From assembly GCA_964645485.1 (NCBI GenBank), contig CAZXZO010000011.1:1-55983 (forward strand): a DNA stretch of 55,983 nucleotides, in the 5' to 3' direction. The translations under genes and the position numbers were made by a program. Shown here piece by piece: positions 12,149 to 26,610 of this stretch. The notes under the pieces are model-generated. The model saw only the letters and a list, made by a program, of their open reading frames with translations. It did not search any database and was not told where the DNA came from. Origin of the DNA: an uncultured Candidatus Poseidoniales archaeon. GTDB taxonomy: Archaea; Thermoplasmatota; Poseidoniia; Poseidoniales; Thalassarchaeaceae. How positions within the stretch are numbered: position 1 is the stretch's first letter; the number at the start of each line of letters is the position of its first letter.

Positions 12149-15100
12149 ATGATTGCAGGTCCGGATACCATGGCAAAAAGTGGCATCGTGAATCTGCGCT
12201 ATCATGCAATCATGATTTCACTCACTATGATTCTTGTATTATTCAGCCCAATGGTGACTGCGTTTGACACTGATGGAGATGGTGTTGATGACAGTACAGA
12301 TGATTGTCCCTTAGCATATGGAAACAGCACCGTTGACAGAGATGGATGCCCGGATGCAGATGGTGATGGAACAAGTGACATCAATGACCCTTGGGTGATT
12401 CAACCGGGTGGATTTCTACAAGATAGCCGCCAATCTTCAAGTGATAACCAATATGTTTCATTATTCAATTTTGATGGAAGCAAATACTTGACAACAGAAG
12501 ATACCGGAGGATGGGGTAATCCAAATGGCTGGTTAAGAATTTGGGATACAACAACAAAAACGAATATTAAATCAGTTGAATTTAGTGGAGATTTCATTCA
12601 CGATGCTGATTGGTCTCAGGATGGAATGTACGTGGCTGCTGTCACCGACAACGATGAGTTGTTTGTTTACTACTCAAGTAACGTTACACCTCTATTCTCT
12701 GTTAGTACAGATGTTGGTAGTGGCGACCAACCTAACGAAGTGGCGTTTAGCCCGGACGGAACTATGATTGCTGTAGTAGTTGGAAGATCTGGAAATGGTG
12801 CTACAAATGGAGAAGTACAGATTTACAATTCAATGAATGGCTCGGCAATAACCGCATTTGACCCGGGTGCTGATAGCAGGTTCTATTCTGTAGATTGGAG
12901 TCCTGATGGTAGTAGAATCCTAATCGGTGGAAGAGAAGATGTTTACATTTACAATACAGGAAATTGGAATGTCAACCGTACAATCAATTCCAATCGCGGG
13001 TCAAACAACGCAGTTGCTTGGTCACCTGATGGAAACACAGTTGCTACTTGTGAGGCTTGGGAAGGGTCTGGGGCTAGAGTGAGATTATACGATGTAGCCA
13101 GTGGTTTACAAAATTGGAAATATGATACATCTACATCCTGTCTTGATATTGAATATTCACCCGATGGCACTCAAGTAGTTGCCACACACTCATATTACCA
13201 ATCAGATGGAGCTAGTCTTAGAGTATTCGAAGTCGATGCGAATTCTCCAACTATTATTGACACAATGTCAGCACCGCGACCTGGTAGTTGTAATGCCGGC
13301 GGCGGAGGAAACAACTGTGGCACCATTTACGGAGTTAGTTGGCATCCAGATGGTGATTATATCATCTCAGCACATGGCAGAAATGACGAGGGGATTTACC
13401 ATTGGATAGTTGACCCCGATATTGATAATGATGGAGTTCTAAACGTTGATGATGCGTTCCCTGAAGACCCTACACAATGGAATGATTCAGATAACGATGG
13501 GTTCGGGGATAACCCAGCACCTGCTACTGAACCTGATGCCTGCCCAGACATACCGGGAACTTCTACTGAAGACCGATATGGCTGTCCTGATACAGATGGT
13601 GATGGGTGGTCTGATTTGAATGATGATTATCCAAACGATGAGTATCAATGGGCAGACGCTGATGGGGATGGACATCCAGACAATATCGAGGATACTCGAG
13701 ACCCGAATCCACACGGCACAGTAGACCGATTACCAAACAATCCAACCCAATGGAATGATACTGACCTCGATGGATATGGTGATAATTTCGCTAATGCATC
13801 TTGGGTTGCAATCCGACCGGCTGAATGGCCTGGTATTCTAATTACCACAATGACTCCAATGCAATTGAATGACATTGATGTTTTCCCTACTGATGATGAG
13901 CAGTGGAATGACAGTGATGGGGATTGGGTTGGAGATGAACAATTTACTAGTCGCTCTGATGGCTGTATCTACATTTATGGTGATTCAATTTGGGACAGGT
14001 TGGCATGTTATGACACTGATGGAGATGGATGGTCAGACCCTGATGACAATTGGCCTGCTTGCAGAGAAGGGGCTGGAACTGGTGATGCTTTCATCAATGA
14101 TCCAAGCCAATGGTGTGATGCTGATGGTGATGGATTTGGAGATAATGCAAGCGGAACTGATGGTGATGCCTGTCCTGGATTTAGAGGAAACTCCTCGATT
14201 GACCGAGTCGGTTGTAAAGACTCGGATGGAGATGGATATTCAGATGCTGGTGACCCATTCCCGGGCGATAAAACTCAATGGGTAGACCGGGATGGAGACG
14301 GTTGTGGTGATAACAGCCTCGGAAATAATCCTGACCTTTTCCCCGATGATTCATCACAATGTGGTGACCGAGATGAAGATGGATATGGGGATTACCCTGT
14401 TGGAGAAAATGGAGATTGGTTCCCAGACCAAATTACTCAATGGTATGACTTTGATGGTGATGGTTATGGTGACAATTTTGGCAATGCTTCATGGGTTATC
14501 GACCGAAATCAATCGTGGCCTGGTATCTACGTAGAAAATGCGTACGAACCTGATTTGTGTCCAACCGAATACGGGCAAATGGAAGGAGAAACTACTCGTG
14601 GTTGCCCAGACACTGACCAAGATGGTGTTGCTGATAATGAAGACGATTATCCCGAGGACCCAATGCGTTCATCCGACCGTGATGGAGATGGATATGCTGA
14701 TGACCCTCTAGCAGCACAAAAAGATGATTGCCCAGACACTTTTGGTACTAGTTACAAAGGAAATACCTACGGTTGTATTGACTCAGATGGTGATGGCTGG
14801 GCAGACAGTAGAGATGAATTCCCTGAAATTTCCAGCCAATGGAAAGATTCCGATGATGATGGTTACGGCGATAATTGGGGTAATTCAACTTGGAACCATA
14901 GTCGAGAATTGAATTGGCCTGGTGATTTCATTGTTGATGCTGAAATGGCGGATGCGTTCCCTACTGATATTACTCAGTGGAATGATACAGATGGCGATGG
15001 ATGGGGGGATAATCCAAATGGTACCGACCCTGATGATTTCCCACTCATTCCTTCGCAGTATAAAGACAGTGACAAAGACGGGTATGGCGACAACACTACT

Positions 15101-15637
15101 CGTGATGCTTTCCAACCAGATGAGTGCAGGTCGAAATTTGGAACATCTTGGGAAGACCGATTTGGCTGTGTTGATACTGATGGAGATGGCTGGTCTGATA
15201 TCGCTGACATCTGTATCTATGATCCAAATGTGTGGGAGGCACCTGGCGTTTGTGAAATAACAGAAGCTGAAACTGGTGTTTCTATTTCTGACAAAAAAAT
15301 GTCTATCGGAGAATTGGGCACATACATTCTGGGTGGTTTAGGAGTAGTTCTTCTTTTAGCCATCCTAGTTGCGATGGTTGCACGTCAAGCAGCCCGGCGT
15401 AGTGGACAATTGATGCGTCAAAATGTTGCCTTACAAGAGCAAATATTCGACGAAGAAGAAACTCGTCGAGAAGAATGGATTGAATATTATCTAGGCCAAG
15501 GAGACTTAGAGAAAGCCAGAGAACTTGGGTGGGTGGAGAAGGCTGATTGGCAACTTCATCAAGAAGCCGAAGAGAAGCAGGCTGTTGAAGCAATTGAGGC
15601 ATTACCTGACGCATTAAACCTTGATGACTTGCTTTGA
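12149..15637 (+). CDS. Secreted, membrane-anchored WD40 beta-propeller plus thrombospondin type 3 repeat protein
   Basis: Signal peptide, WSPDG/FSPDG blades, dozens of DxDGDGxGD repeats, one C-terminal TM. Confidence 0.9.
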   Translation: MIAGPDTMAKSGIVNLRYHAIMISLTMILVLFSPMVTAFDTDGDGVDDSTDDCPLAYGNSTVDRDGCPDADGDGTSDINDPWVIQPGGFLQDSRQSSSDNQYVSLFNFDGSKYLTTEDTGGWGNPNGWLRIWDTTTKTNIKSVEFSGDFIHDADWSQDGMYVAAVTDNDELFVYYSSNVTPLFSVSTDVGSGDQPNEVAFSPDGTMIAVVVGRSGNGATNGEVQIYNSMNGSAITAFDPGADSRFYSVDWSPDGSRILIGGREDVYIYNTGNWNVNRTINSNRGSNNAVAWSPDGNTVATCEAWEGSGARVRLYDVASGLQNWKYDTSTSCLDIEYSPDGTQVVATHSYYQSDGASLRVFEVDANSPTIIDTMSAPRPGSCNAGGGGNNCGTIYGVSWHPDGDYIISAHGRNDEGIYHWIVDPDIDNDGVLNVDDAFPEDPTQWNDSDNDGFGDNPAPATEPDACPDIPGTSTEDRYGCPDTDGDGWSDLNDDYPNDEYQWADADGDGHPDNIEDTRDPNPHGTVDRLPNNPTQWNDTDLDGYGDNFANASWVAIRPAEWPGILITTMTPMQLNDIDVFPTDDEQWNDSDGDWVGDEQFTSRSDGCIYIYGDSIWDRLACYDTDGDGWSDPDDNWPACREGAGTGDAFINDPSQWCDADGDGFGDNASGTDGDACPGFRGNSSIDRVGCKDSDGDGYSDAGDPFPGDKTQWVDRDGDGCGDNSLGNNPDLFPDDSSQCGDRDEDGYGDYPVGENGDWFPDQITQWYDFDGDGYGDNFGNASWVIDRNQSWPGIYVENAYEPDLCPTEYGQMEGETTRGCPDTDQDGVADNEDDYPEDPMRSSDRDGDGYADDPLAAQKDDCPDTFGTSYKGNTYGCIDSDGDGWADSRDEFPEISSQWKDSDDDGYGDNWGNSTWNHSRELNWPGDFIVDAEMADAFPTDITQWNDTDGDGWGDNPNGTDPDDFPLIPSQYKDSDKDGYGDNTTRDAFQPDECRSKFGTSWEDRFGCVDTDGDGWSDIADICIYDPNVWEAPGVCEITEAETGVSISDKKMSIGELGTYILGGLGVVLLLAILVAMVARQAARRSGQLMRQNVALQEQIFDEEETRREEWIEYYLGQGDLEKARELGWVEKADWQLHQEAEEKQAVEAIEALPDALNLDDLL

Positions 15638-17847: not shown

Positions 17848-20613
17848 TTGCCCTCAGGGCGGGTCTTAAGTGTGAGTGGGTTTGTCGCCTCTATAAGAGG
17901 CGGTAGTATGGGGGGACGTAATTCTGACAGCAGATTGCTCATAATTGCGCTTGCTTTTATTCTACTCGCTCCACTTGCGATAAGTTCTGCAAGCGCGGAT
18001 TCAGAGGATATTGAATTAGTGATTTCTATTTCTGAGCCAACAACCGGAGCAGATTGGTATGATGGCGGCGAATCCCTTTCAATCTCGATTTCTGTAAAGA
18101 ATTCTGGTGCAACTACTCAATCAATTGAGTACAATCCGTCGTGCCCTGTTGACATTGAAATTTTTGACAATAATGATGAATCATTCACAACCCTACGTGA
18201 GCACAGAGTTTGCCTTGAACAACGTCGAGCAATTGACATACCTGCTGGACAAACAAGAAGCCTTGATTCATTTGATTGGCAATGGCAAAACGCATCTGGG
18301 GCAGTCATTAGCAGTGGTGATATTACGGTTGATTTCAACTTTGAGTCAGGTTTAGCAACTCATGTACAACCTATACAATTCCAGCGCAGTCCTGTGTTAA
18401 TTGAAGACTTGGTATTACAAGTTAACACTGCCCTACCTATTAGTGGCGGCCTAGATTATTTGTCCGGAGAGAGCGTTTATTCTCATGTTTCACTAACCAA
18501 TAGTGGCACCAACCCGATAGCTGTTGACGCCGATGAAGGTTGTATGGTTACGATTCAAGTTAACTCAATAGCGACATCAAATCCACCTTCAATGACTGAC
18601 TTGAGTTGTAGTTCCGGGACTACACTTGGAATCGGTGAATCGGTTCCTTTGGGTTGGCTTATTTGGGACTTTACTTCGGAAGGTGAGCAACTTGAGGCCG
18701 GGCTATGGACGGTTGAAATTGCAACGACTGGATTGAGTGGTTTGGCAAGTTCCTTTGATGCTACATTAGCAAGCAGTGAGACTAGGCCCGAGGCTTTAGT
18801 TGAGGTTGCAGTTAGTTTACTCGGTGATGATGAACAAGATGGAATCATTACCGAAACCGATAATATTCAAGTAAAAACTGAGTTAGTGAATTCAGCCGAT
18901 GTGCCTGCTGAGTTACAATTCAACAGTAGTTGTCTAGTTCAAATCCAATTAATTTCCGAAGAAGGAATGATAACCAAGGATTCAAGATTGAATGAAAACT
19001 GTGAAACCGAATTTTCTGAATTAAAAATTGATCCTAATAGCCAGTTTATGATTGACCAGAGAATATGGTCGATGAATGCAGACAGTAATTGTGAACTCAA
19101 TGATGGCTCTTATTTGATGTTGGTAACAATGCCTGAATATGGAATTACTACTGAATATCTAATTGATTACGATGGCAGCGATAGCGGACCTGCTTGTTTA
19201 GCATCTATGCAAGACACTAGCCTAGCCCAATTCAGAGTAACTGAATTAATCACTAACAATCCTAGGACATTCGAAGAATCAATTACTTTCCAAATCCAAC
19301 TAGAAAACCAAGTTGACTTGGATATCCATTGGCCTCAAGAATGTCACTTAGCCTTCACTCTACAAAGAATTGGTGATTCCCAACCCCATCAAATATGGAA
19401 TGAACAGTGTGGGGAAGCGGCTGGGGTTGTAGAGACAATTGCCGCTGGAAATGGCATACCATTTGACCCATTTACAATTGAGTTTGGTGAACTGAACCAA
19501 GGGACATGGTCTATTTTCATAGAGACCACTGGTACACCTAAATTCACAACACAATTAGCCCATACTTGGAACCCGCCTGTCATTGAAGAAGAGCAGAATT
19601 CCGAAGATGAAACTGTCAGCGAAGTTGCAGATGAAACAATCGTTCAAGAAGATGCTATTCTAATGAGTTGGATGGCAGAAGGTAATTGGCAATATGTCAC
19701 AACTGATTTTGGTGGATGCTGGATTCTAATTGATGTTGATGGAAATGAACACGCTTTCTCATCTTCCCTGGTAAATGACTGGAAACCACTTCCAAATCAC
19801 AGAGGAGCATATTGGGTTGAGGAAACTGTCGACACATCAACTGCTTGCTCAAGTTGGGAATCTCACATCGTTGTAGTTGACGTGCTAGGTGAAGCGCAAA
19901 GCGCTCCAGCAGAAACTAACTCTGACAATGAGGTGGCATCTGAAACCCCAGTAATTTCTATTCCTACTGCAGCACCAACAATCGTCGCTTTGGTTGCATC
20001 AACTAGTTTACTCGCACTAATTGCTGGCGCTTTGACTCAAGTTGAGTGGATTCGACTTCCAGCAACAAAGTATGGCCTGGCTCTTCTAGGAATGGTTCGC
20101 AGGACCAAGGAATCAGGTGGAGAGTACCAGAGAGGTAGAATTGTTGCCTACATTGAATTGCACAGAGGTATTCACTTCAGGGCGTTACTTGGGGCATTAG
20201 AAATGTCGAATGGGCAACTGACCCACCATCTTTCGGTCTTGGAATCTGATGAAAGAGTTTGGCGGCGAAAGGATGGGCGTAAAGTAAGATATTACCCCGC
20301 TTCCATTGACTCAAGAACTGAGGATGATGATTTGCCAGTTCCAGTATTAACTCCCGACCCGAACAGTCTACAGGGGAAAATTCTGCAAATCCTTGACATT
20401 CACGAAAATGAAATCCTAAATCTTTCACAGAAAGAATTGTCTGACAAATTGGAAACCAGCCAGCAATTGGTATCATACCATCTCAAATCATTAGAAGATT
20501 GGGGCCTAGTTGAGAAAGAGAGAGTTGCCATGCGTTATCGATACCGATTGACTGACCGAGCACTGATTCTGCTGAACTCTAGCGACTTCCCATCTTTACT
20601 TGATGAGGTATGA
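17848..20613 (+). CDS. Membrane-spanning protein: large extracellular Ig-like region plus cytoplasmic tandem winged-helix domains
   Basis: Signal peptide (likely start ATG 17908), Cys-paired beta-rich repeats, TM, then GIHFRALL...GQLTHHL and LSQKELS...LVSYHL helix-turn-helix units. Confidence 0.8.
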   Translation: MPSGRVLSVSGFVASIRGGSMGGRNSDSRLLIIALAFILLAPLAISSASADSEDIELVISISEPTTGADWYDGGESLSISISVKNSGATTQSIEYNPSCPVDIEIFDNNDESFTTLREHRVCLEQRRAIDIPAGQTRSLDSFDWQWQNASGAVISSGDITVDFNFESGLATHVQPIQFQRSPVLIEDLVLQVNTALPISGGLDYLSGESVYSHVSLTNSGTNPIAVDADEGCMVTIQVNSIATSNPPSMTDLSCSSGTTLGIGESVPLGWLIWDFTSEGEQLEAGLWTVEIATTGLSGLASSFDATLASSETRPEALVEVAVSLLGDDEQDGIITETDNIQVKTELVNSADVPAELQFNSSCLVQIQLISEEGMITKDSRLNENCETEFSELKIDPNSQFMIDQRIWSMNADSNCELNDGSYLMLVTMPEYGITTEYLIDYDGSDSGPACLASMQDTSLAQFRVTELITNNPRTFEESITFQIQLENQVDLDIHWPQECHLAFTLQRIGDSQPHQIWNEQCGEAAGVVETIAAGNGIPFDPFTIEFGELNQGTWSIFIETTGTPKFTTQLAHTWNPPVIEEEQNSEDETVSEVADETIVQEDAILMSWMAEGNWQYVTTDFGGCWILIDVDGNEHAFSSSLVNDWKPLPNHRGAYWVEETVDTSTACSSWESHIVVVDVLGEAQSAPAETNSDNEVASETPVISIPTAAPTIVALVASTSLLALIAGALTQVEWIRLPATKYGLALLGMVRRTKESGGEYQRGRIVAYIELHRGIHFRALLGALEMSNGQLTHHLSVLESDERVWRRKDGRKVRYYPASIDSRTEDDDLPVPVLTPDPNSLQGKILQILDIHENEILNLSQKELSDKLETSQQLVSYHLKSLEDWGLVEKERVAMRYRYRLTDRALILLNSSDFPSLLDEV

Positions 20614-20691: not shown

Positions 20692-23526
20692 ATGGAGGAG
20701 GTATTCTCGCCTGCAAACATTGAACAGAAATGGCAAAAGAGATGGTTTGATGAAGAGATTTTCATTGCTCCAGTAGAGGCTGAAAAACCTAAATTCTACT
20801 GCTTAGAAATGTATCCATATCCATCTGGGAAAATGCATATTGGCCATGTAAGAAACTATTCGATTGGAGATGCTGTTGCTCGTTATCGACGGGCAAGAGG
20901 ATTCAATGTCATCTACCCAATGGGTTTCGATTCTTTTGGAATGCCTGCTGAAAATGCTGCAATAAAAGAAGGTGGCCACCCAAGAGATATCACAGACCGA
21001 AATATCGCTAGCATCAAATCTGACTTCCAGCAAATGGGATTTTCACACGATTGGAATCGTCAAGTTATGAGTCATGACCCTAATTATTATCGATGGAACC
21101 AATGGTTTTTTCTGAAATTTTACGAGAGTGGATTGGCATACCGAACTTTTGCCAATGTCAACTGGTGTGAACAGTGTAACACCGTTTTAGCAAACGAACA
21201 AGTGCATAATGGGAGGTGCTGGAGATGTTCGAGTGAAGTTGCTCAAAGAGACATGGACCAATGGTTTTTGAAAATCACGGACTATGCCCAAGAACTGCTT
21301 GACTCACTAGAGGAAATACAATTCCCTAACCATGTTAAAGCACTACAAAAAGACTGGATGGGTCGTTCAGAAGGTGCACAGATTAAGTTCAAAGTGGAAG
21401 ATGATGATGCTCTTGAAATAGAAGCATTTACCACTCGGCCTGATACTATTTTTGGTGTGACATTTGTAACTCTGGCTCCTGAAAATCCTCTATGTGGTGC
21501 CTTGGTTGAAGGACACGAAAATGAACAGGCATGGCGGGAAATGGAGAAGGAAGCAAAGCAACTTTCCGACATGGATAGAGGCATGTTGAAGAAGAAAAAG
21601 GGTGTATTTCTTGGCCGCCATGCTATTAATCCCCTGAGTGGAGAGAAAATACCAATTTATGCTGGTAATTTCGTTATCGCTTCATATGGCACGGGCTCAG
21701 TAATGGCCGTACCTGGTCATGACCAACGCGACTTTGACTTCGCCACTGAGCACAACCTACCGATTACACGCGTTTTGTTAGAAGATGGGGCTGACAACGA
21801 TGCCCCACTTACCCAAGCCTTCGAAGGCTATGGAAAAATGACAAATTCCGCCCGAGATGGGTTTGATGGTTTGAGCGGAGATGAGGCTAAGAGGGCTGTC
21901 ATTGATGCACTCGAGAGTGAAGATTCAGGGCACGGGATGGTTCAATGGAAAATTCGTGACTGGTTGATTTCAAGGCAGAGGTATTGGGGTACTCCAATCC
22001 CTATAATCCACTGTGAAGAGTGCGGTGCTGTCCCCGTTCGAGAAGATGAATTGCCTGTTATGTTACCAGATGATGTTGTCTTTAGTGGAACGGGAAATCC
22101 AATGGAAACATCGGAATCATTCCTCAATGTGAATTGTCCAACCTGTGGAATTCCGGCTCGGAGAGAAACCGACACAATGGATACATTTGTGGATTCTTCT
22201 TGGTATTTTATGCGCTACACCGACGCGCAAAACTCTGAATCATGTTTTAGTGAAGCAGCAGCAGATTACTGGATGAATGTTGACTTTTATTGTGGTGGAA
22301 TTGAACACGCACAAATGCACTTAATCTACGCTAGATTTTGGACTAAAGCATTGAGAGATATGGGGTTGCATCGTTTTGATGAACCATTTGAGGAATTATT
22401 ATGCCAAGGAATGGTTAATGCCCAAGCACCATTTTGTGCTCCTTGTAACATAACTCACCCTGTAAGTGAAAGAGGTAATGCTTGCCCTTATTGTTCTGGT
22501 GAGTTGACAGAGCGCAGTGCCAAAATGAGTAAATCTCTGGGCAATACTGTCGGACCAGTTTCAATGATTGAACAATATGGTGCAGACACTGTGAGATTGT
22601 TCATTTTGTTTGCAGCCCAGCCCACGGCTGGAATGGATTGGTCTGATAGCGGGGTGGAATCTTGTTTCAAACAGATGAAAGCGATTTGGAATTTGAGCCG
22701 TGAAATGTTATCATGGGGAAACGATGATTCACCAATTGATGATTGGTTGAGAACCCAATTTGAAACACGTACAACTGAATGGGTTTCAGCAATGGAATCC
22801 GTTGATTTACGGGCTGGAGTCATGCTAAGTCATTATGACATTTATTCCGACCTTGTTTGGTACCAACGACGTGGTGGGTGTAATAGTGAGTTGGCCAGAA
22901 CACTACTACTCGATTGGGCTAAAATGATGCATCCTGCGACCCCTCATCTTGCTGAAGAACTTTGGGAGTTAGCAGGAGGTGAAGGCCTGGTTGCCATCCA
23001 AACACTCGGGTTTGATGAGCATGCAAATGGGGAGACTGAGGGGATAAATCCAGTCTTGGCTCGTGAAATTTTCTTGCAATCTGTTCTAGATCAGGCTCGC
23101 CAAATGAAAGGTTTAGCACAACGACATCTTGAGGATGATGCAACATCTGTTACCTTCCAAATCGCTGAGGATTGGAAAGGACAACTAGTTCGGACGGGTA
23201 TTGAATTACTAGAGAATGAGTTCCCAATGAAAGGCGCGATGGGCGAGATTATGTCACGACCTTTTACCCAAGAAGGAGAAGTGAGAGGACAAGTTCCTGG
23301 GGCTTGGAAACGAATAATGAAACAATTGTACAAATGGTCGCCAACCGAGAGAAGTGTGTTGAAAGTTAACCTTGATGAAGTACAAATCCTAACTGATGCT
23401 GAGGAATTCATTAGCAACGAGTTAGGTATTCAAGAGATTCATATTTACCGTGCTGGCGACGGCGAGGATGTTGGTGGGAAAGCGAAATTTGCTTACCCGT
23501 CAGAGCCGGGTATTGCCTATCTCTGA
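20692..23526 (+). CDS. leuS: Leucine--tRNA ligase
   Basis: PYPSGKMHIGH, TTRPDT editing motif, GTGSVMAVPGHDQRD, SRQRYWG, KMSKS. Confidence 0.97.
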   Translation: MEEVFSPANIEQKWQKRWFDEEIFIAPVEAEKPKFYCLEMYPYPSGKMHIGHVRNYSIGDAVARYRRARGFNVIYPMGFDSFGMPAENAAIKEGGHPRDITDRNIASIKSDFQQMGFSHDWNRQVMSHDPNYYRWNQWFFLKFYESGLAYRTFANVNWCEQCNTVLANEQVHNGRCWRCSSEVAQRDMDQWFLKITDYAQELLDSLEEIQFPNHVKALQKDWMGRSEGAQIKFKVEDDDALEIEAFTTRPDTIFGVTFVTLAPENPLCGALVEGHENEQAWREMEKEAKQLSDMDRGMLKKKKGVFLGRHAINPLSGEKIPIYAGNFVIASYGTGSVMAVPGHDQRDFDFATEHNLPITRVLLEDGADNDAPLTQAFEGYGKMTNSARDGFDGLSGDEAKRAVIDALESEDSGHGMVQWKIRDWLISRQRYWGTPIPIIHCEECGAVPVREDELPVMLPDDVVFSGTGNPMETSESFLNVNCPTCGIPARRETDTMDTFVDSSWYFMRYTDAQNSESCFSEAAADYWMNVDFYCGGIEHAQMHLIYARFWTKALRDMGLHRFDEPFEELLCQGMVNAQAPFCAPCNITHPVSERGNACPYCSGELTERSAKMSKSLGNTVGPVSMIEQYGADTVRLFILFAAQPTAGMDWSDSGVESCFKQMKAIWNLSREMLSWGNDDSPIDDWLRTQFETRTTEWVSAMESVDLRAGVMLSHYDIYSDLVWYQRRGGCNSELARTLLLDWAKMMHPATPHLAEELWELAGGEGLVAIQTLGFDEHANGETEGINPVLAREIFLQSVLDQARQMKGLAQRHLEDDATSVTFQIAEDWKGQLVRTGIELLENEFPMKGAMGEIMSRPFTQEGEVRGQVPGAWKRIMKQLYKWSPTERSVLKVNLDEVQILTDAEEFISNELGIQEIHIYRAGDGEDVGGKAKFAYPSEPGIAYL

Positions 23527-23591: not shown

Positions 23592-24680
23592 GTGAACAGA
23601 AGTAACGAACAAGACGACAACCACCGACCGAAGAAAAACAACCGTGATAAGAAGCAGAGCGGCGATTCCAAAAAAGGAAACAAGAAAAGTCGCTCAAATT
23701 CTCGCCGAGGCGGTAGTGGTGGTGGGCAGAATAGCCAATCAACTGCCCGAATTAAAGAAGCAAAGGAACGGGCTGAGGCTAGATTTTCCGTCAATCCTAA
23801 ACCATTGGGTTTTCCTGAAGAATTGGAAGCCCCAAGTAAGGTGTCAGTTCAATGGGAGACTACTCCAATAAAACAACGCACAGAACGTCAAGCTTGTGAT
23901 TTAGTAATGATTCCAGGTGAATGGGGATTCCTAGATGATGATGCTGTGGATGGGATGGGCGAGCGCTTGGAAAAGCATAACATGAGTGTTGACCAAGGTC
24001 TATCATTGCGCAAAGCATTGATGCAAGAGAAGGCCGTTTACGGCCATTATAAAATGATGAATAAGTCAAAAACGTTCCATAAAAGATATGAAAATGGTGA
24101 AAGTATTCTACAACTCTCAAGACAATTTGACTTTCCGCCGGTTGCGATATTTAGAGCAATACTCACTGCCCGTGGGTGGTCAAAAGTGAAGATTCGAGAC
24201 TCTCTAAGAGCGCCTGATAGATTGCTTTCAAAACGCGATGCTGCAGAGTTTCATGAAGCGGAAGAAAAAGACCGCGTGACAAATGTCGACCAAGGTGAAA
24301 CTGCAGTACGAGCAGATTTGTTTGAGGATGTTGTTGGCAATTACCTCGACACTTTAGGTATCAAATACCGCCGCCAAGAAGAGTTGCTAAGTGAGCAACA
24401 AAAAGAACATGGTAGGCCACTGAATACTCCAGATTTTCTAATAATGGATGATTTGAAGGTTAATGGTAAGTCGATTGCTTGGATTGACGCTAAGAATTTC
24501 TATGGTGCAAACGTATCATTTGCTAAGAAGAAAACTAAGAAACAAATGAATCGATATATCGATGAATGGGGTTCAGGTGCAATCGTTTACCGGCATGGAT
24601 TCTGTGAGGCAATGAAAATTCCCGGGGTCTTAATGTTAGATGAAACACCCCTAGATATCACTATCATGTATGATGAGTGA
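23592..24680 (+). CDS. CDIN1/C15orf41-like (TPD family) PD-(D/E)XK nuclease
   Basis: NTPDFLI...WIDAKNFYG and QMNRYIDEWGSGAIVYRHGF, with a helical N-terminal region and a basic disordered N-terminus; GTG start. Confidence 0.8.
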   Translation: MNRSNEQDDNHRPKKNNRDKKQSGDSKKGNKKSRSNSRRGGSGGGQNSQSTARIKEAKERAEARFSVNPKPLGFPEELEAPSKVSVQWETTPIKQRTERQACDLVMIPGEWGFLDDDAVDGMGERLEKHNMSVDQGLSLRKALMQEKAVYGHYKMMNKSKTFHKRYENGESILQLSRQFDFPPVAIFRAILTARGWSKVKIRDSLRAPDRLLSKRDAAEFHEAEEKDRVTNVDQGETAVRADLFEDVVGNYLDTLGIKYRRQEELLSEQQKEHGRPLNTPDFLIMDDLKVNGKSIAWIDAKNFYGANVSFAKKKTKKQMNRYIDEWGSGAIVYRHGFCEAMKIPGVLMLDETPLDITIMYDE

Positions 24681-24687
24681 TGGGGAA

Positions 24688-25677
24688 TTATCTCAGCGAC
24701 GTTTCTGATAATGAAACCTCAATTGATTTCAATCCCATCAAATTAAACTGTTCAATCATGTTTAACATCTCATCGTTATTGAATCCTGATTCAAGTGATG
24801 TTGGTAAAATAACAAGGCTTTCTCCAAGCATGCAAAGATGTGGTGAGGCTGATGTGCCAGCGAGTGAAATCGCCTCGCTTGCAATCTGTAACAGTTCGGC
24901 TCTGCCTGCATCCGATGCCAACTGTGAGTTTGTTGCAAAGGCAGTAGAGGCAGCAAGGATTTCTGCCCAGCGCGTTTCGTCCCAATCACCTGTTTTCAAG
25001 CCAGATAATTGTTCTTCTCCGCTCTTGCGAATACGCGTTTTCCAACCTTCATCATCAATGTATGAGGATGTGTGACGTGTGGTTCTGTCTCGCCACGCTA
25101 CTAACATTTTGAGGTCTTGATGCCAGCCGTCTACTACTCCTGAACCCCCCAATTTTTCGCTCACTCGCGGGCATCCTGGTTCTCTTCTGAGGTCTATTCC
25201 CCCAGCCCATAGTGCAGATATGTCACCGAGTCCACCTGAGAGTATACGCTCGACCAAATGTGCTACATGAAAGGATTGAGAATGTGCGACTTGTTCTTCT
25301 ACACCCAATGCTCTCTGTAAAGCAAGGGCAGTGGCCAAGGCACCAGCGGCTGAGAGGCCAAACCCCTGTTGTTGGGGTAATCCACAACTCTGTTGAATTT
25401 GCCAATTATAATCTAAAACTGAAGGTACTAATTGAGAAAGTGTGTCAATTACTGTCTGCTGAAGGATTAAACTCTGGTCTTGAGATTTCTCAATGATTTT
25501 ACCCGAACCTAATTCACCAATCACGGTTATCTGGCATGTTGGCTGCGCCGAGTCAATACAAAGCCCGATTCCCCGGCTACCTTGATTGATTAATTCAGTA
25601 GCATCGTCCTGTACACTGAAAATTAGAGTAATGTGTCCCGATGAAGCGGCTTGCCCTGTAATCTCGGTCATCGTCAA
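24688..25677 (-). CDS. pok: Pantoate kinase (GHMP kinase family)
   Basis: GHITLIF, GSRGIGLC, QGFGLSAAGALA, AHLVE...GLGD, RREPG. Confidence 0.85.
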   Translation of the reverse strand: MTMTEITGQAASSGHITLIFSVQDDATELINQGSRGIGLCIDSAQPTCQITVIGELGSGKIIEKSQDQSLILQQTVIDTLSQLVPSVLDYNWQIQQSCGLPQQQGFGLSAAGALATALALQRALGVEEQVAHSQSFHVAHLVERILSGGLGDISALWAGGIDLRREPGCPRVSEKLGGSGVVDGWHQDLKMLVAWRDRTTRHTSSYIDDEGWKTRIRKSGEEQLSGLKTGDWDETRWAEILAASTAFATNSQLASDAGRAELLQIASEAISLAGTSASPHLCMLGESLVILPTSLESGFNNDEMLNMIEQFNLMGLKSIEVSLSETSLR

Positions 25678-25716: not shown

Positions 25717-26610
25717 TCAAAGAGATTCTGCGAAGTCACTTGATAGTGATTCAAAGCGACCCGCTAATTCCTTACAGGCTTGATCTAAGCAAGTGCGGGC
25801 TGTCATTGAACCATCAGTCTCGAACTGGAAAATATATTCTCCTTCAACATCCTCTAAAGTAATCGCATCATTGAATTCTGCTTCTAAATCAGTTCCACTT
25901 CCAACATGGTTGAGGTCGTTTCTGAGCAAATCTACCTTATCGATATCATCGAGAATTCCATCTTTATTGAAATCCTTAGCAGTGATATTCAAATTAAGAT
26001 CAAAAAGCATCTTTGAGCGTGTCTTAACGTTCATTTTCCCGTTCTGACGTGAGTGGAATGTCACACCAGATACTGGTGAGTACTTGGCATGGTCTCTACC
26101 TCTACCCATTATTGCATAGAAGTATGCATGAAGCACTTGTCCTTCGAATAATTTTGTTAAAGGAATGGAACCATAGGCTTCTGGGATTTCTAATCGGCGG
26201 TCACCAATCACGTTTAACTCTGAAGCAACAACACTTCTTCCACCCGCTTCACCGCTAGATGAAATCGTGTAGATAATCTGACATGAAGGGCAGCCACGTT
26301 GATCAACTACCATGTCTTTACAATCAGGACATTCGTCTTGGAAGTAAAAGTCATCATGGAAGGTTGGGATTGGAAGCATTGAGAATCTATGTGCGAGTTG
26401 TTCATCACTGATCGCATAATTTGACTCAAATAATTCGCCAGTCTCTTCATCTTTGAAAACACCGAGTTCAACTCTCATTTGGTCAATGGCGAATTTTGGT
26501 ACATCAGCAATCATAGTCCTGCGTAGGGAATTTACGAATGCTCGGTTAACTCCTGAAAAGAGAATCCTTAGTGAAGTATCTGTTTCTGAAAGAACTTTTA
26601 ATTTTACCAT
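25717..26610 (-). CDS. rpoD: DNA-directed RNA polymerase subunit D (Rpo3)
   Basis: NSLRRTMIADVPKFAID, LAHRFSMLP, GRGRDHAKYSP, FQFETDGS; follows rps11. Confidence 0.95.
   Translation of the reverse strand: MVKLKVLSETDTSLRILFSGVNRAFVNSLRRTMIADVPKFAIDQMRVELGVFKDEETGELFESNYAISDEQLAHRFSMLPIPTFHDDFYFQDECPDCKDMVVDQRGCPSCQIIYTISSSGEAGGRSVVASELNVIGDRRLEIPEAYGSIPLTKLFEGQVLHAYFYAIMGRGRDHAKYSPVSGVTFHSRQNGKMNVKTRSKMLFDLNLNITAKDFNKDGILDDIDKVDLLRNDLNHVGSGTDLEAEFNDAITLEDVEGEYIFQFETDGSMTARTCLDQACKELAGRFESLSSDFAESL

Follow-up and report, generated by a model that had tools for sequence, protein, structure and literature searches.

We analyzed a predicted nuclease gene of the TPD family in a 55,983-nt stretch of genomic DNA (contig CAZXZO010000011.1; hereafter, the window, meaning this whole stretch) from a Poseidoniales (Marine Group II) archaeon, the assembly of which comprises 1.94 Mb and is 82% complete. 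The gene occupies an open reading frame (ORF) on the forward strand (23592-24680, stop codon included), starts with GTG, and encodes a protein of 362 amino acids (aa); the GTG start is supported because close orthologues begin with MNRN... at the same position. A preliminary description of the window, made from the sequence alone, had identified the product as an archaeal homologue of the eukaryotic nuclease CDIN1/C15orf41, and this identification is borne out by both profile searches and database names. The only significant Pfam family is TPD (PF14811; E value of 1.7e-21, 76.9 bits versus a gathering score of 27), the family of human CDIN1/C15orf41; the match covers residues 214-350 and profile positions 3-136 of 138, and the family scored 79 bits in the genome-level search. 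Homologues numbered 538 in one search, with 1231 representatives at 50% identity, and the orthologues are named "C15orf41 family protein", "TPD domain-containing protein", or "CDAN1-interacting nuclease 1" in NCBI and UniRef and labelled "CDAN1-interacting nuclease 1 family protein" in the ESM Atlas.

The preliminary description had named a best match to generic restriction-like or Hjc nuclease profiles as the outcome that would speak against this assignment, and no such match was obtained: PF14811 alone was significant, PF01870 (Hjc) did not match the TPD protein even at E values up to 10, none of the Pfam families of generic PD-(D/E)XK nucleases was matched, and searches of NCBIfam and PHROGs gave no significant match. 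The likeness to eukaryotic CDIN1 is not confined to the nuclease part. In a BLASTP comparison with XP_012202103.1 from Saprolegnia parasitica, named "CDAN1-interacting nuclease 1" in UniRef, the window protein is 34% identical over 274 aa (E value of 3e-53), and the alignment is colinear (residues 86-357 versus 356-627), spanning the helical and the nuclease parts, as had been claimed. No CDIN1 chain was found in the PDB by sequence, where phmmer gave only chance matches to ribosomal protein S15. Taken together, the sequence evidence is decisive in pointing to a genuine, intact member of the CDIN1/TPD family of PD-(D/E)XK nucleases, of the subtype that is referred to below as type B. The features of the gene and its surroundings are collected in Table 1.

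Table 1. Coordinates of the TPD gene, its predicted parts, and its neighbours (positions in the window)
Feature	Coordinates	Strand	Basis and remarks
Whole gene, CDIN1/TPD-family nuclease	23592..24680	+	ORF and translation; PF14811, 76.9 bits; core dN/dS 0.06-0.07
Basic low-complexity N-terminal tail, residues 1-80	23592..23831	+	Residues 1-45 disordered, predicted helix 46-64, then linker
Type B N-terminal element, residues 81-115	23832..23936	+	Strand 83-86, helix 95-105, PGEWGFL motif; pLDDT at least 96
Helical N-domain, residues 116-233, about nine helices, contains ILQLSRQFDFPPVAIFRAIL	23937..24290	+	Model; colinear with Saprolegnia CDIN1
Long connecting helix, residues 234-254, with the first catalytic acid, E245 (nt 24324-24326), in FEDVV	24291..24353	+	Model
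PD-(D/E)XK nuclease domain, residues 255-355, five-stranded sheet between helices	24354..24656	+	Model; VIA-align Z 5-6.8
TPDF motif, T279-F282; D281 (nt 24432-24434) is the PD aspartate	24426..24437	+	70-sequence alignment
D299-A-K301, (D/E)xK motif inside WIDAKNFYG	24486..24494	+	Alignment
Q318-x-x-x-Y322, helix after the DxK strand	24543..24557	+	Invariant in 70 sequences; in type A too
leuS, upstream neighbour, 65-nt gap to the TPD gene	20692..23526	+	Pfam matches
GHMP-kinase-like gene, probably pantoate kinase, convergent downstream neighbour	24688..25677	-	Pfam GHMP_kinases_N
rpoD, after the GHMP-kinase-like gene	25717..26610		Context gene

The catalytic PD...DxK signature, described earlier as intact, is indeed complete. 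Across the 70 diverse relatives that were aligned, ten residues (D227, E245, P280, D281, W297, K301, Q318, Y322, G327, and G329) do not vary, T279 is nearly invariant, and E245, D281, D299, and K301, all of them retained, match in order E166, D196, E214, and K216 of the human enzyme (PMC13463051). The stretches quoted in the preliminary description are all found in the translation: TPDF lies exactly at nt 24426-24437 (T279-F282), WIDAKNFYG corresponds to residues 297-305, QMNRYIDEWGSGAIVYRHGF to residues 318-337, ILQLSRQFDFPPVAIFRAIL to residues 172-191, and FEDVVGNYL to residues 244-252. The disordered N terminus, said to be rich in K, R, S, and G, likewise has 14 K and R among residues 1-45, is rich in S, G, and N, and has a predicted local distance difference test (pLDDT) score below 50 in the structural model. 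The Q318-x-x-x-Y322 pair resembles the QxxxY motif of RecB/Cas4-type nucleases, but profile comparison did not support a link, with hhalign assigning a probability of 0.14% to the match with three Cas4-like archaeal proteins.

An AlphaFold model built on the 70-sequence alignment has a mean pLDDT of 86.9, with values of at least 95 over residues 81-355 except for 88 in residues 231-240. It consists of a disordered tail (residues 1-45), a domain of about nine helices, a linker helix (234-254), and a five-stranded alpha/beta/alpha domain with strands at 259-261, 282-290, 293-301, 329-333, and 346-350. This two-domain plan agrees with the published description of human CDIN1, in which a mostly alpha-helical N-domain with eight helices is followed by a linker helix and a PD-(D/E)XK C-domain (PMC13463051), both structures being predictions; indeed, two cryo-EM studies could not resolve CDIN1 (PMC13463051). 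When residues 232-360 were compared with known structures using VIA-align, the predicted C-domain matched PD-(D/E)XK nucleases with Z scores of 5-6.8, a range below the value of 8 under which the tool advises caution. The neighbours included AF1548, VC1899, Can2/Card1, NucS (Z 6.0), Vsr (Z 6.0), type II restriction enzymes, and Hjc (1gef, Z 5.1), and the same kind of neighbours has been reported for the C-domain of human CDIN1 (PMC13463051). A Foldseek search of the model against the PDB retrieved nothing at an E value of 0.001 or better, and the ESM Atlas shape search recovered its own kind (TM score of 0.82) along with only weak restriction-enzyme matches. The window protein shares the core fold and the metal-binding motif with Hjc, NucS, T7 endonuclease I, and type II restriction enzymes, but these generic PD-(D/E)XK nucleases have no counterpart of the helical N-domain.

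The TPD gene is a near-universal, syntenic core gene of Poseidoniales that evolves under strong purifying selection. Of the 121 Poseidoniales genomes sampled, 120 have a PF14811 match, almost always in a single copy, and each of the 21 genera and three families is represented; the gene order leuS, TPD, convergent GHMP-kinase-like gene, and rpoD-S11-S4-S13 is kept in all three families. Given this fixed syntenic place, the gene was present in the ancestor of Poseidoniales. In two genomes of the family coded f3, a second TPD match occurs beside the syntenic copy, in one case inside a 940-aa ORF that is possibly a fusion (G044:C4:120240-120626) and in the other in a 344-aa ORF (G060:C8:601-1008). 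A 407-aa protein of the Poseidoniales type (P0021; 53% identity) carries the label "Dehalococcoidia bacterium" in an NCBI metagenome-assembled genome and probably comes from a mis-binned Marine Group II contig.

Across the phylum, a TPD gene was found in 116 of the 201 sampled Thermoplasmatota genomes, and the Pfam scores fall into two classes, 65-82 bits in Poseidoniales versus 123-167 bits outside the order, except for one gene split over two contigs. The two classes correspond to two deep subtypes. Proteins of type A, which occur in Methanomassiliicoccales (named "C15orf41 family protein" in NCBI) and other Thermoplasmatota, and also in Methanosarcina acetivorans, belong to the same family and share the catalytic residues with the window protein, but are only 24-30% identical to it, measure 250-280 aa, lack the basic tail, and carry the motif WIESKASFG; residue 299 is E in type A and D in type B. 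They start after the element at residues 81-115, which the window protein has in common with the marine-protist, Saprolegnia, and L021 (see below) proteins. The only two genomes sampled from another order of the same class both have a type A gene (Pfam E value of about 1e-38) at a different locus, whereas all 120 Poseidoniales copies are of type B. Outside Poseidoniales, type B proteins with a WIDAKNFYG-like motif were found in the oomycete Saprolegnia, in a cluster that includes a EukProt entry of Chaetoceros neogracilis, in an MMETSP transcript, and in Kipferlia bialata (GIQ89291.1), with Pfam scores of 67-86 bits for the non-Poseidoniales type B proteins overall. The contig of the Chaetoceros cluster also carries genes for WW, B9-C2, prefoldin, and PI-PLC proteins, a plainly eukaryotic nuclear context. 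Other type B genes lie on AT-rich or ORFan-rich contigs together with genes for kinesin, fused topoisomerase II, FtsJ, XPG, Ras, DOT1, Rpb2 with an intein, mitochondrial carrier, thymidine kinase, and RING finger proteins; the gene content of five such contigs points to a giant-virus origin. The Poseidoniales gene is of the "WIDAK" type B of protists and giant-virus-like contigs, and not of the "WIESK" type A of other Thermoplasmatota.

The three protist CDIN1 proteins (Saprolegnia, C. neogracilis, and K. bialata) resemble the window protein in subtype, in the WIDAKNFYG-like motif, in Pfam score (68-86 bits), and in 34-41% identity over the whole core, with the element at residues 81-115 included, but differ in having long additional N-terminal regions (365-765 aa in total) and eukaryotic gene contexts. 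Human CDIN1 shares with the window protein the Pfam family, the succession of helical N-domain, linker helix, and PD-(D/E)XK C-domain, and the order of the catalytic set; it differs in that the window protein has about 80 extra N-terminal residues, forming the basic disordered tail, and D in place of E in the (D/E)xK motif. The spacing from the first acid to the PD aspartate is 36 residues in the window protein versus 30 in the human protein (PMC13463051) and 28-29 in type A. Human and archaeal C15orf41 have been reported to match at an E value of 1e-34, compared with 1e-12 for the human and choanoflagellate proteins (PMC7092493). Together with these values and the Pfam scores, the human motifs given in the preliminary description, HWIESKASFG among them, indirectly make the human enzyme appear to be of type A.

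The Poseidoniales proteins also differ from type A in their basic N-terminal tail. In the window protein, pLDDT values of 52-75 follow the disordered residues 1-45 up to residue 80, and the first 109 residues contain 24 K and R versus 14 D and E. A tail of at least 20 aa ahead of the type A start point is present in 120 of 121 Poseidoniales homologues (median length of 93 aa, K and R fraction of 0.22, net charge of +9), whereas the corresponding segment of the type A archaeal forms has a median length of 7 aa; long basic tails recur in the marine-protist clade. Compared with congeners, the ratio of nonsynonymous to synonymous substitutions (dN/dS) is 0.23-0.38 in the tail and 0.06-0.07 in the core.

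Within this family, such activity is known only for the human protein, an RNA 3'-end nuclease that acts on double-stranded RNA (dsRNA) and RNA:DNA hybrids and of which the affinity and processivity are raised by the positively charged coiled-coil (CC) domain of Codanin-1, the substrate feeder (PMC13463051). By analogy, the archaeal TPD protein would be a Mg- or Mn-dependent nuclease trimming RNA 3' ends in dsRNA or RNA:DNA hybrids, taking part in RNA or R-loop turnover as a housekeeping enzyme and acting alone, without Codanin-1. The literature places Codanin-1 only in eukaryotes, oomycetes and diatoms included (PMC7092493), and a search of the 82%-complete genome for Codanin-1_C (PF15296) gave no match, which is a weak negative given that the same search matched none of 14 control genomes. 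The basic tail might then supply, in cis, the nonspecific grip on nucleic acids that is given in trans by the basic coiled coil of Codanin-1 in human cells, although we regard this counterpart role of the tail as speculative. Overall, we consider it probable that this type B TPD nuclease trims the 3' ends of RNA or hybrids without Codanin-1, with the tail perhaps contributing in cis, and that the gene has been exchanged with marine eukaryotes or their viruses. Several observations count against this interpretation. Basic tails are common among nucleic-acid-binding proteins, and the tail sequence is fast-evolving. The substrate is carried over from the human enzyme across about 30% identity, and that enzyme, the source of the functional analogy, appears to be of the other subtype. 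On its own, human CDIN1 is weakly active, at protein concentrations above 250 nM (PMC13463051), and an earlier extensive study detected no activity of it on many DNA and RNA substrates (PMC7261414). Finally, the neighbouring genes offer no functional hint beyond the stable synteny.

A role in DNA repair or recombination, long assumed for C15orf41, would instead make the TPD protein a nuclease cutting branched or damaged DNA in the manner of Hjc, T7 endonuclease I, or NucS. The PD-(D/E)XK fold, with NucS, Vsr, and Hjc among the structural neighbours, is compatible with such a role, but Z scores of this size are typical of a generic similarity in fold. The only PDB match of a profile of 70 family members is T7 endonuclease I (3cae), in which FE...TPDF is aligned with LE...TPDF; however, this match is not significant (E value of 0.019, 49 columns), and 3cae was absent from the best 50 structural-search matches listed. 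Genome context has also been considered in favour of a DNA substrate, the type A gene lying directly upstream of a gene for a Cas4-like DNA nuclease in other Thermoplasmatota; of the six type A loci read, two, from the same family, show this arrangement (Cas4-like genes at L016:1980-2969 and L020:1982-2971), and the Cas4-like homologue of the genome studied here is unlinked to the TPD gene (contig C21, L026:853-2091, 412 aa, 35% identity). In the reading frame of the Cas4-like PD-(D/E)XK nuclease, a long hydrophobic segment is inserted, and cysteines are clustered at the end. Evidence against the DNA alternative also comes from human CDIN1, which cut RNA (PMC13463051) and left DNA and Holliday junctions uncut in two studies (PMC7261414, PMC13463051), and from the presence of a canonical Hjc in 119 of 121 Poseidoniales genomes (on contig C2 in this genome), so that there is no resolvase gap for the TPD protein to fill; the idea that it stands in for a missing Hjc was discarded on these grounds. 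We consider a DNA-repair function unlikely. A restriction-like nuclease of a defence system or selfish element, as might be suggested by the many type II restriction enzymes and the CRISPR ancillary nucleases Can2 and Card1 among the top structural neighbours, or else an inactive scaffold, is very improbable and already largely refuted by the distribution of a single-copy core gene with a fixed housekeeping neighbourhood in 120 of 121 genomes. Also against these readings are window neighbours that include no methylase or defence gene, the lack of any match to the TPD protein in phage records or IMG/VR viral contigs, the invariance of all the catalytic residues, and the low core dN/dS.

With regard to the origin of the gene, the preliminary description had offered a choice between an ancestral archaeal form and a transfer from a eukaryote or virus to an archaeon. 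To place the Poseidoniales gene, maximum-likelihood trees were built with IQ-TREE under LG+C20+F+G4; all of them are unrooted and contain no metazoan sequences, and most of their type B rows are metagenomic proteins. In the 91-row tree, type A forms one clade on the longest branch (support of 100/100), which joins type B among giant-virus-like and unplaced clades. Poseidoniales are united with 24 other rows in a clade (100/97) that has Kipferlia as its sister (95/87), the oomycetes also being outside the Poseidoniales group, and a 23-row marine-protist clade (100/97) is nested within, on the Poseidoniaceae side. In the 75-row tree, where the Poseidoniales rows come from genomes of known family code (f1, f2, and f3), the backbone leads from the marine-protist clade through a grade of f3 (g15; g18 with g16; g19; g17 with g21; g20) to a split between f1, which includes the window gene and P0122 from a virus-like contig, and f2 with all other type B proteins. 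When type A and the long giant-virus rows were left out (53 rows), the same pattern was obtained (f3 with protists, 97/95; protists sister to g15, 98/88), so that the marine-protist clade is inside f3, beside g15, in all three trees.

These topologies were evaluated with approximately unbiased (AU) tests, the groups for which were named after the trees had been seen. Holding the Poseidoniales (with P0122) together cost 31.8 log-likelihood units (lnL) and was not rejected in the 75-row set (p-AU 0.058), compared with 22.2 lnL (p-AU 0.029) in the 53-row set; holding f3 together in the 53-row set cost 31.5 lnL (p-AU 0.005), and uniting all eukaryote and virus rows in one group in the 75-row set cost 39 lnL (p-AU 0.012). 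A further test, in which all archaea were held together without P0122, gave p = 1.7e-11 but was set aside as confounded, given that P0122 is thereby excluded from the very clade that surrounds it. The attachment point of type A shifts between the giant-virus-like clades and the inside of the protist clade, and therefore the root of type B is not fixed.

The Poseidoniales gene is much more similar to its counterparts in eukaryotes and giant viruses than to that of the sister order, which, in addition, lies at a different locus, and inter-domain transfer is therefore needed. Judging from the trees, Poseidoniales and marine eukaryotes or their viruses have traded the gene; at the base, the transfer may have run in either direction, and either option of the preliminary description may hold. 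The marine-protist clade most likely derives from a Poseidoniaceae-like archaeon. P0122, a 562-aa protein with a 268-aa N-terminal extension (L021:2140-3828), nests in f1 beside g7 and g9. Its contig in the Logan collection, L021 (42 kb, GC content of 47.6%), is gene-dense and ORFan-rich, carries a RING-finger gene, and otherwise has no similarity to the window. P0122 appears to mark a second export of the gene from Marine Group II, to a virus or a eukaryote.

Two histories could account for the deeper relationships. One that we find quite possible, without calling it probable, is that a type B gene acquired from a eukaryote or giant virus took the place of type A in the ancestor of Poseidoniales and that Poseidoniaceae-like archaea later passed the gene to marine protists. 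The type A genes at a different locus in the two genomes of another order of the same class, as opposed to the uniform type B of Poseidoniales, are as expected under a replacement, and so are the attachment of type A and the outlying oomycetes and Kipferlia in the 91-row tree, while the later transfer is supported by the position of the protists beside g15 in all three trees and by the 53-row AU tests of f3 and of Poseidoniales. Conversely, the long type A branch shifts between data sets, attaching within the protist clade in the 75-row tree, and long-branch attraction is likely; the union of Poseidoniales is not rejected in the 75-row set, with groups chosen post hoc; and the giant-virus origin of the type B rows is drawn from the gene content of five contigs. 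Slightly less likely is a history of vertical descent, in which the Thermoplasmatota gene was passed down to Poseidoniales and diverged rapidly along the stem of that order, and every type B gene now seen in protists and giant viruses came from Poseidoniales-like donors. In this case, the short-branched Poseidoniales rows would form the backbone of the unrooted trees, as they do, and the eukaryote and virus groups would attach separately, as is observed for the marine protists on f3, the other type B proteins next to f2, and P0122 in f1; the cost of uniting all eukaryote and virus rows and the fixed synteny of a gene already present in the ancestor of the order are also in line with vertical descent. 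However, a very wide spread from a single marine archaeal order to oomycetes, a metamonad, diatoms, and several deep giant-virus clades would be required, type A attaches to the Poseidoniales backbone in no tree, and the locus differs from that of the sister order. Combining the recent transfers with the functional interpretation, it is conceivable, and we hold it tentatively, that the protist CDIN1-like clade, including the nuclear gene of a diatom, came from a Poseidoniaceae-like donor, that a second copy moved from another Poseidoniales family to a virus- or eukaryote-like contig, and that the basic tail makes for an autonomous RNA nuclease that does without a Codanin-1-like feeder.

The existence of CDIN1 in archaea is correct but already known: euryarchaeal orthologues of C15orf41 were reported by Swickley et al. 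in 2020 (PMC7092493) and are annotated in public databases, so the novelty suggested by the preliminary description was overstated. The subtype split and the nesting of protists among archaea are modest additions, and no published account of the type A/type B split, of giant-virus copies, or of the exchange with Marine Group II was found in the literature searched. Human CDIN1 is an essential, poorly understood disease enzyme that is mutated in hereditary anaemia and the structure of which is unsolved; it was first shown to act as an RNA nuclease in 2026, and without Codanin-1 this activity is weak. As the preliminary description proposed, structural and enzymological work could profit from an archaeal relative that is small, looks soluble, and is predicted to need no partner, an idea that the existing annotations already suggest to any reader. 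In the choice of such a model, Methanomassiliicoccales-like type A proteins look closer to the human enzyme, whereas the Poseidoniales protein represents the subtype of protists and giant viruses with a built-in basic tail. The protist clade nested in Poseidoniales, if confirmed, would be a clean case of archaeon-to-eukaryote gene transfer between co-inhabitants of the ocean surface.

Only 7 nt separate the ends of the TPD gene and its convergent pantoate-kinase-like neighbour, with stops at 24680 and 24688 (window positions 24677-24691), and no terminator-like hairpin was found between the two stops in this interval. NCBIfam pantoate kinase models match the GHMP-kinase-like neighbour below their cut-offs. 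A scan for sigma-70 promoters, a model that does not apply to archaea, yielded sites no more frequent than in shuffled sequence. Elsewhere in the window, the forward-strand gene at 12149-15637 encodes a 1162-aa WD40/beta-propeller protein, the best matches of which are to eukaryotic-type families (THOC3, EML, and eIF2A); only the eIF2A, WD40, PD40, ANAPC4_WD40, and DUF5711 (at the cut-off) matches are not below the cut-offs. The forward-strand gene at 17848-20613 encodes a 921-aa protein in which an N-terminal region resembling BsuPI (intracellular proteinase inhibitor) is combined with C-terminal helix-turn-helix domains of the HVO_0163 and ArsR/MarR types, an unusual architecture for a large regulator.

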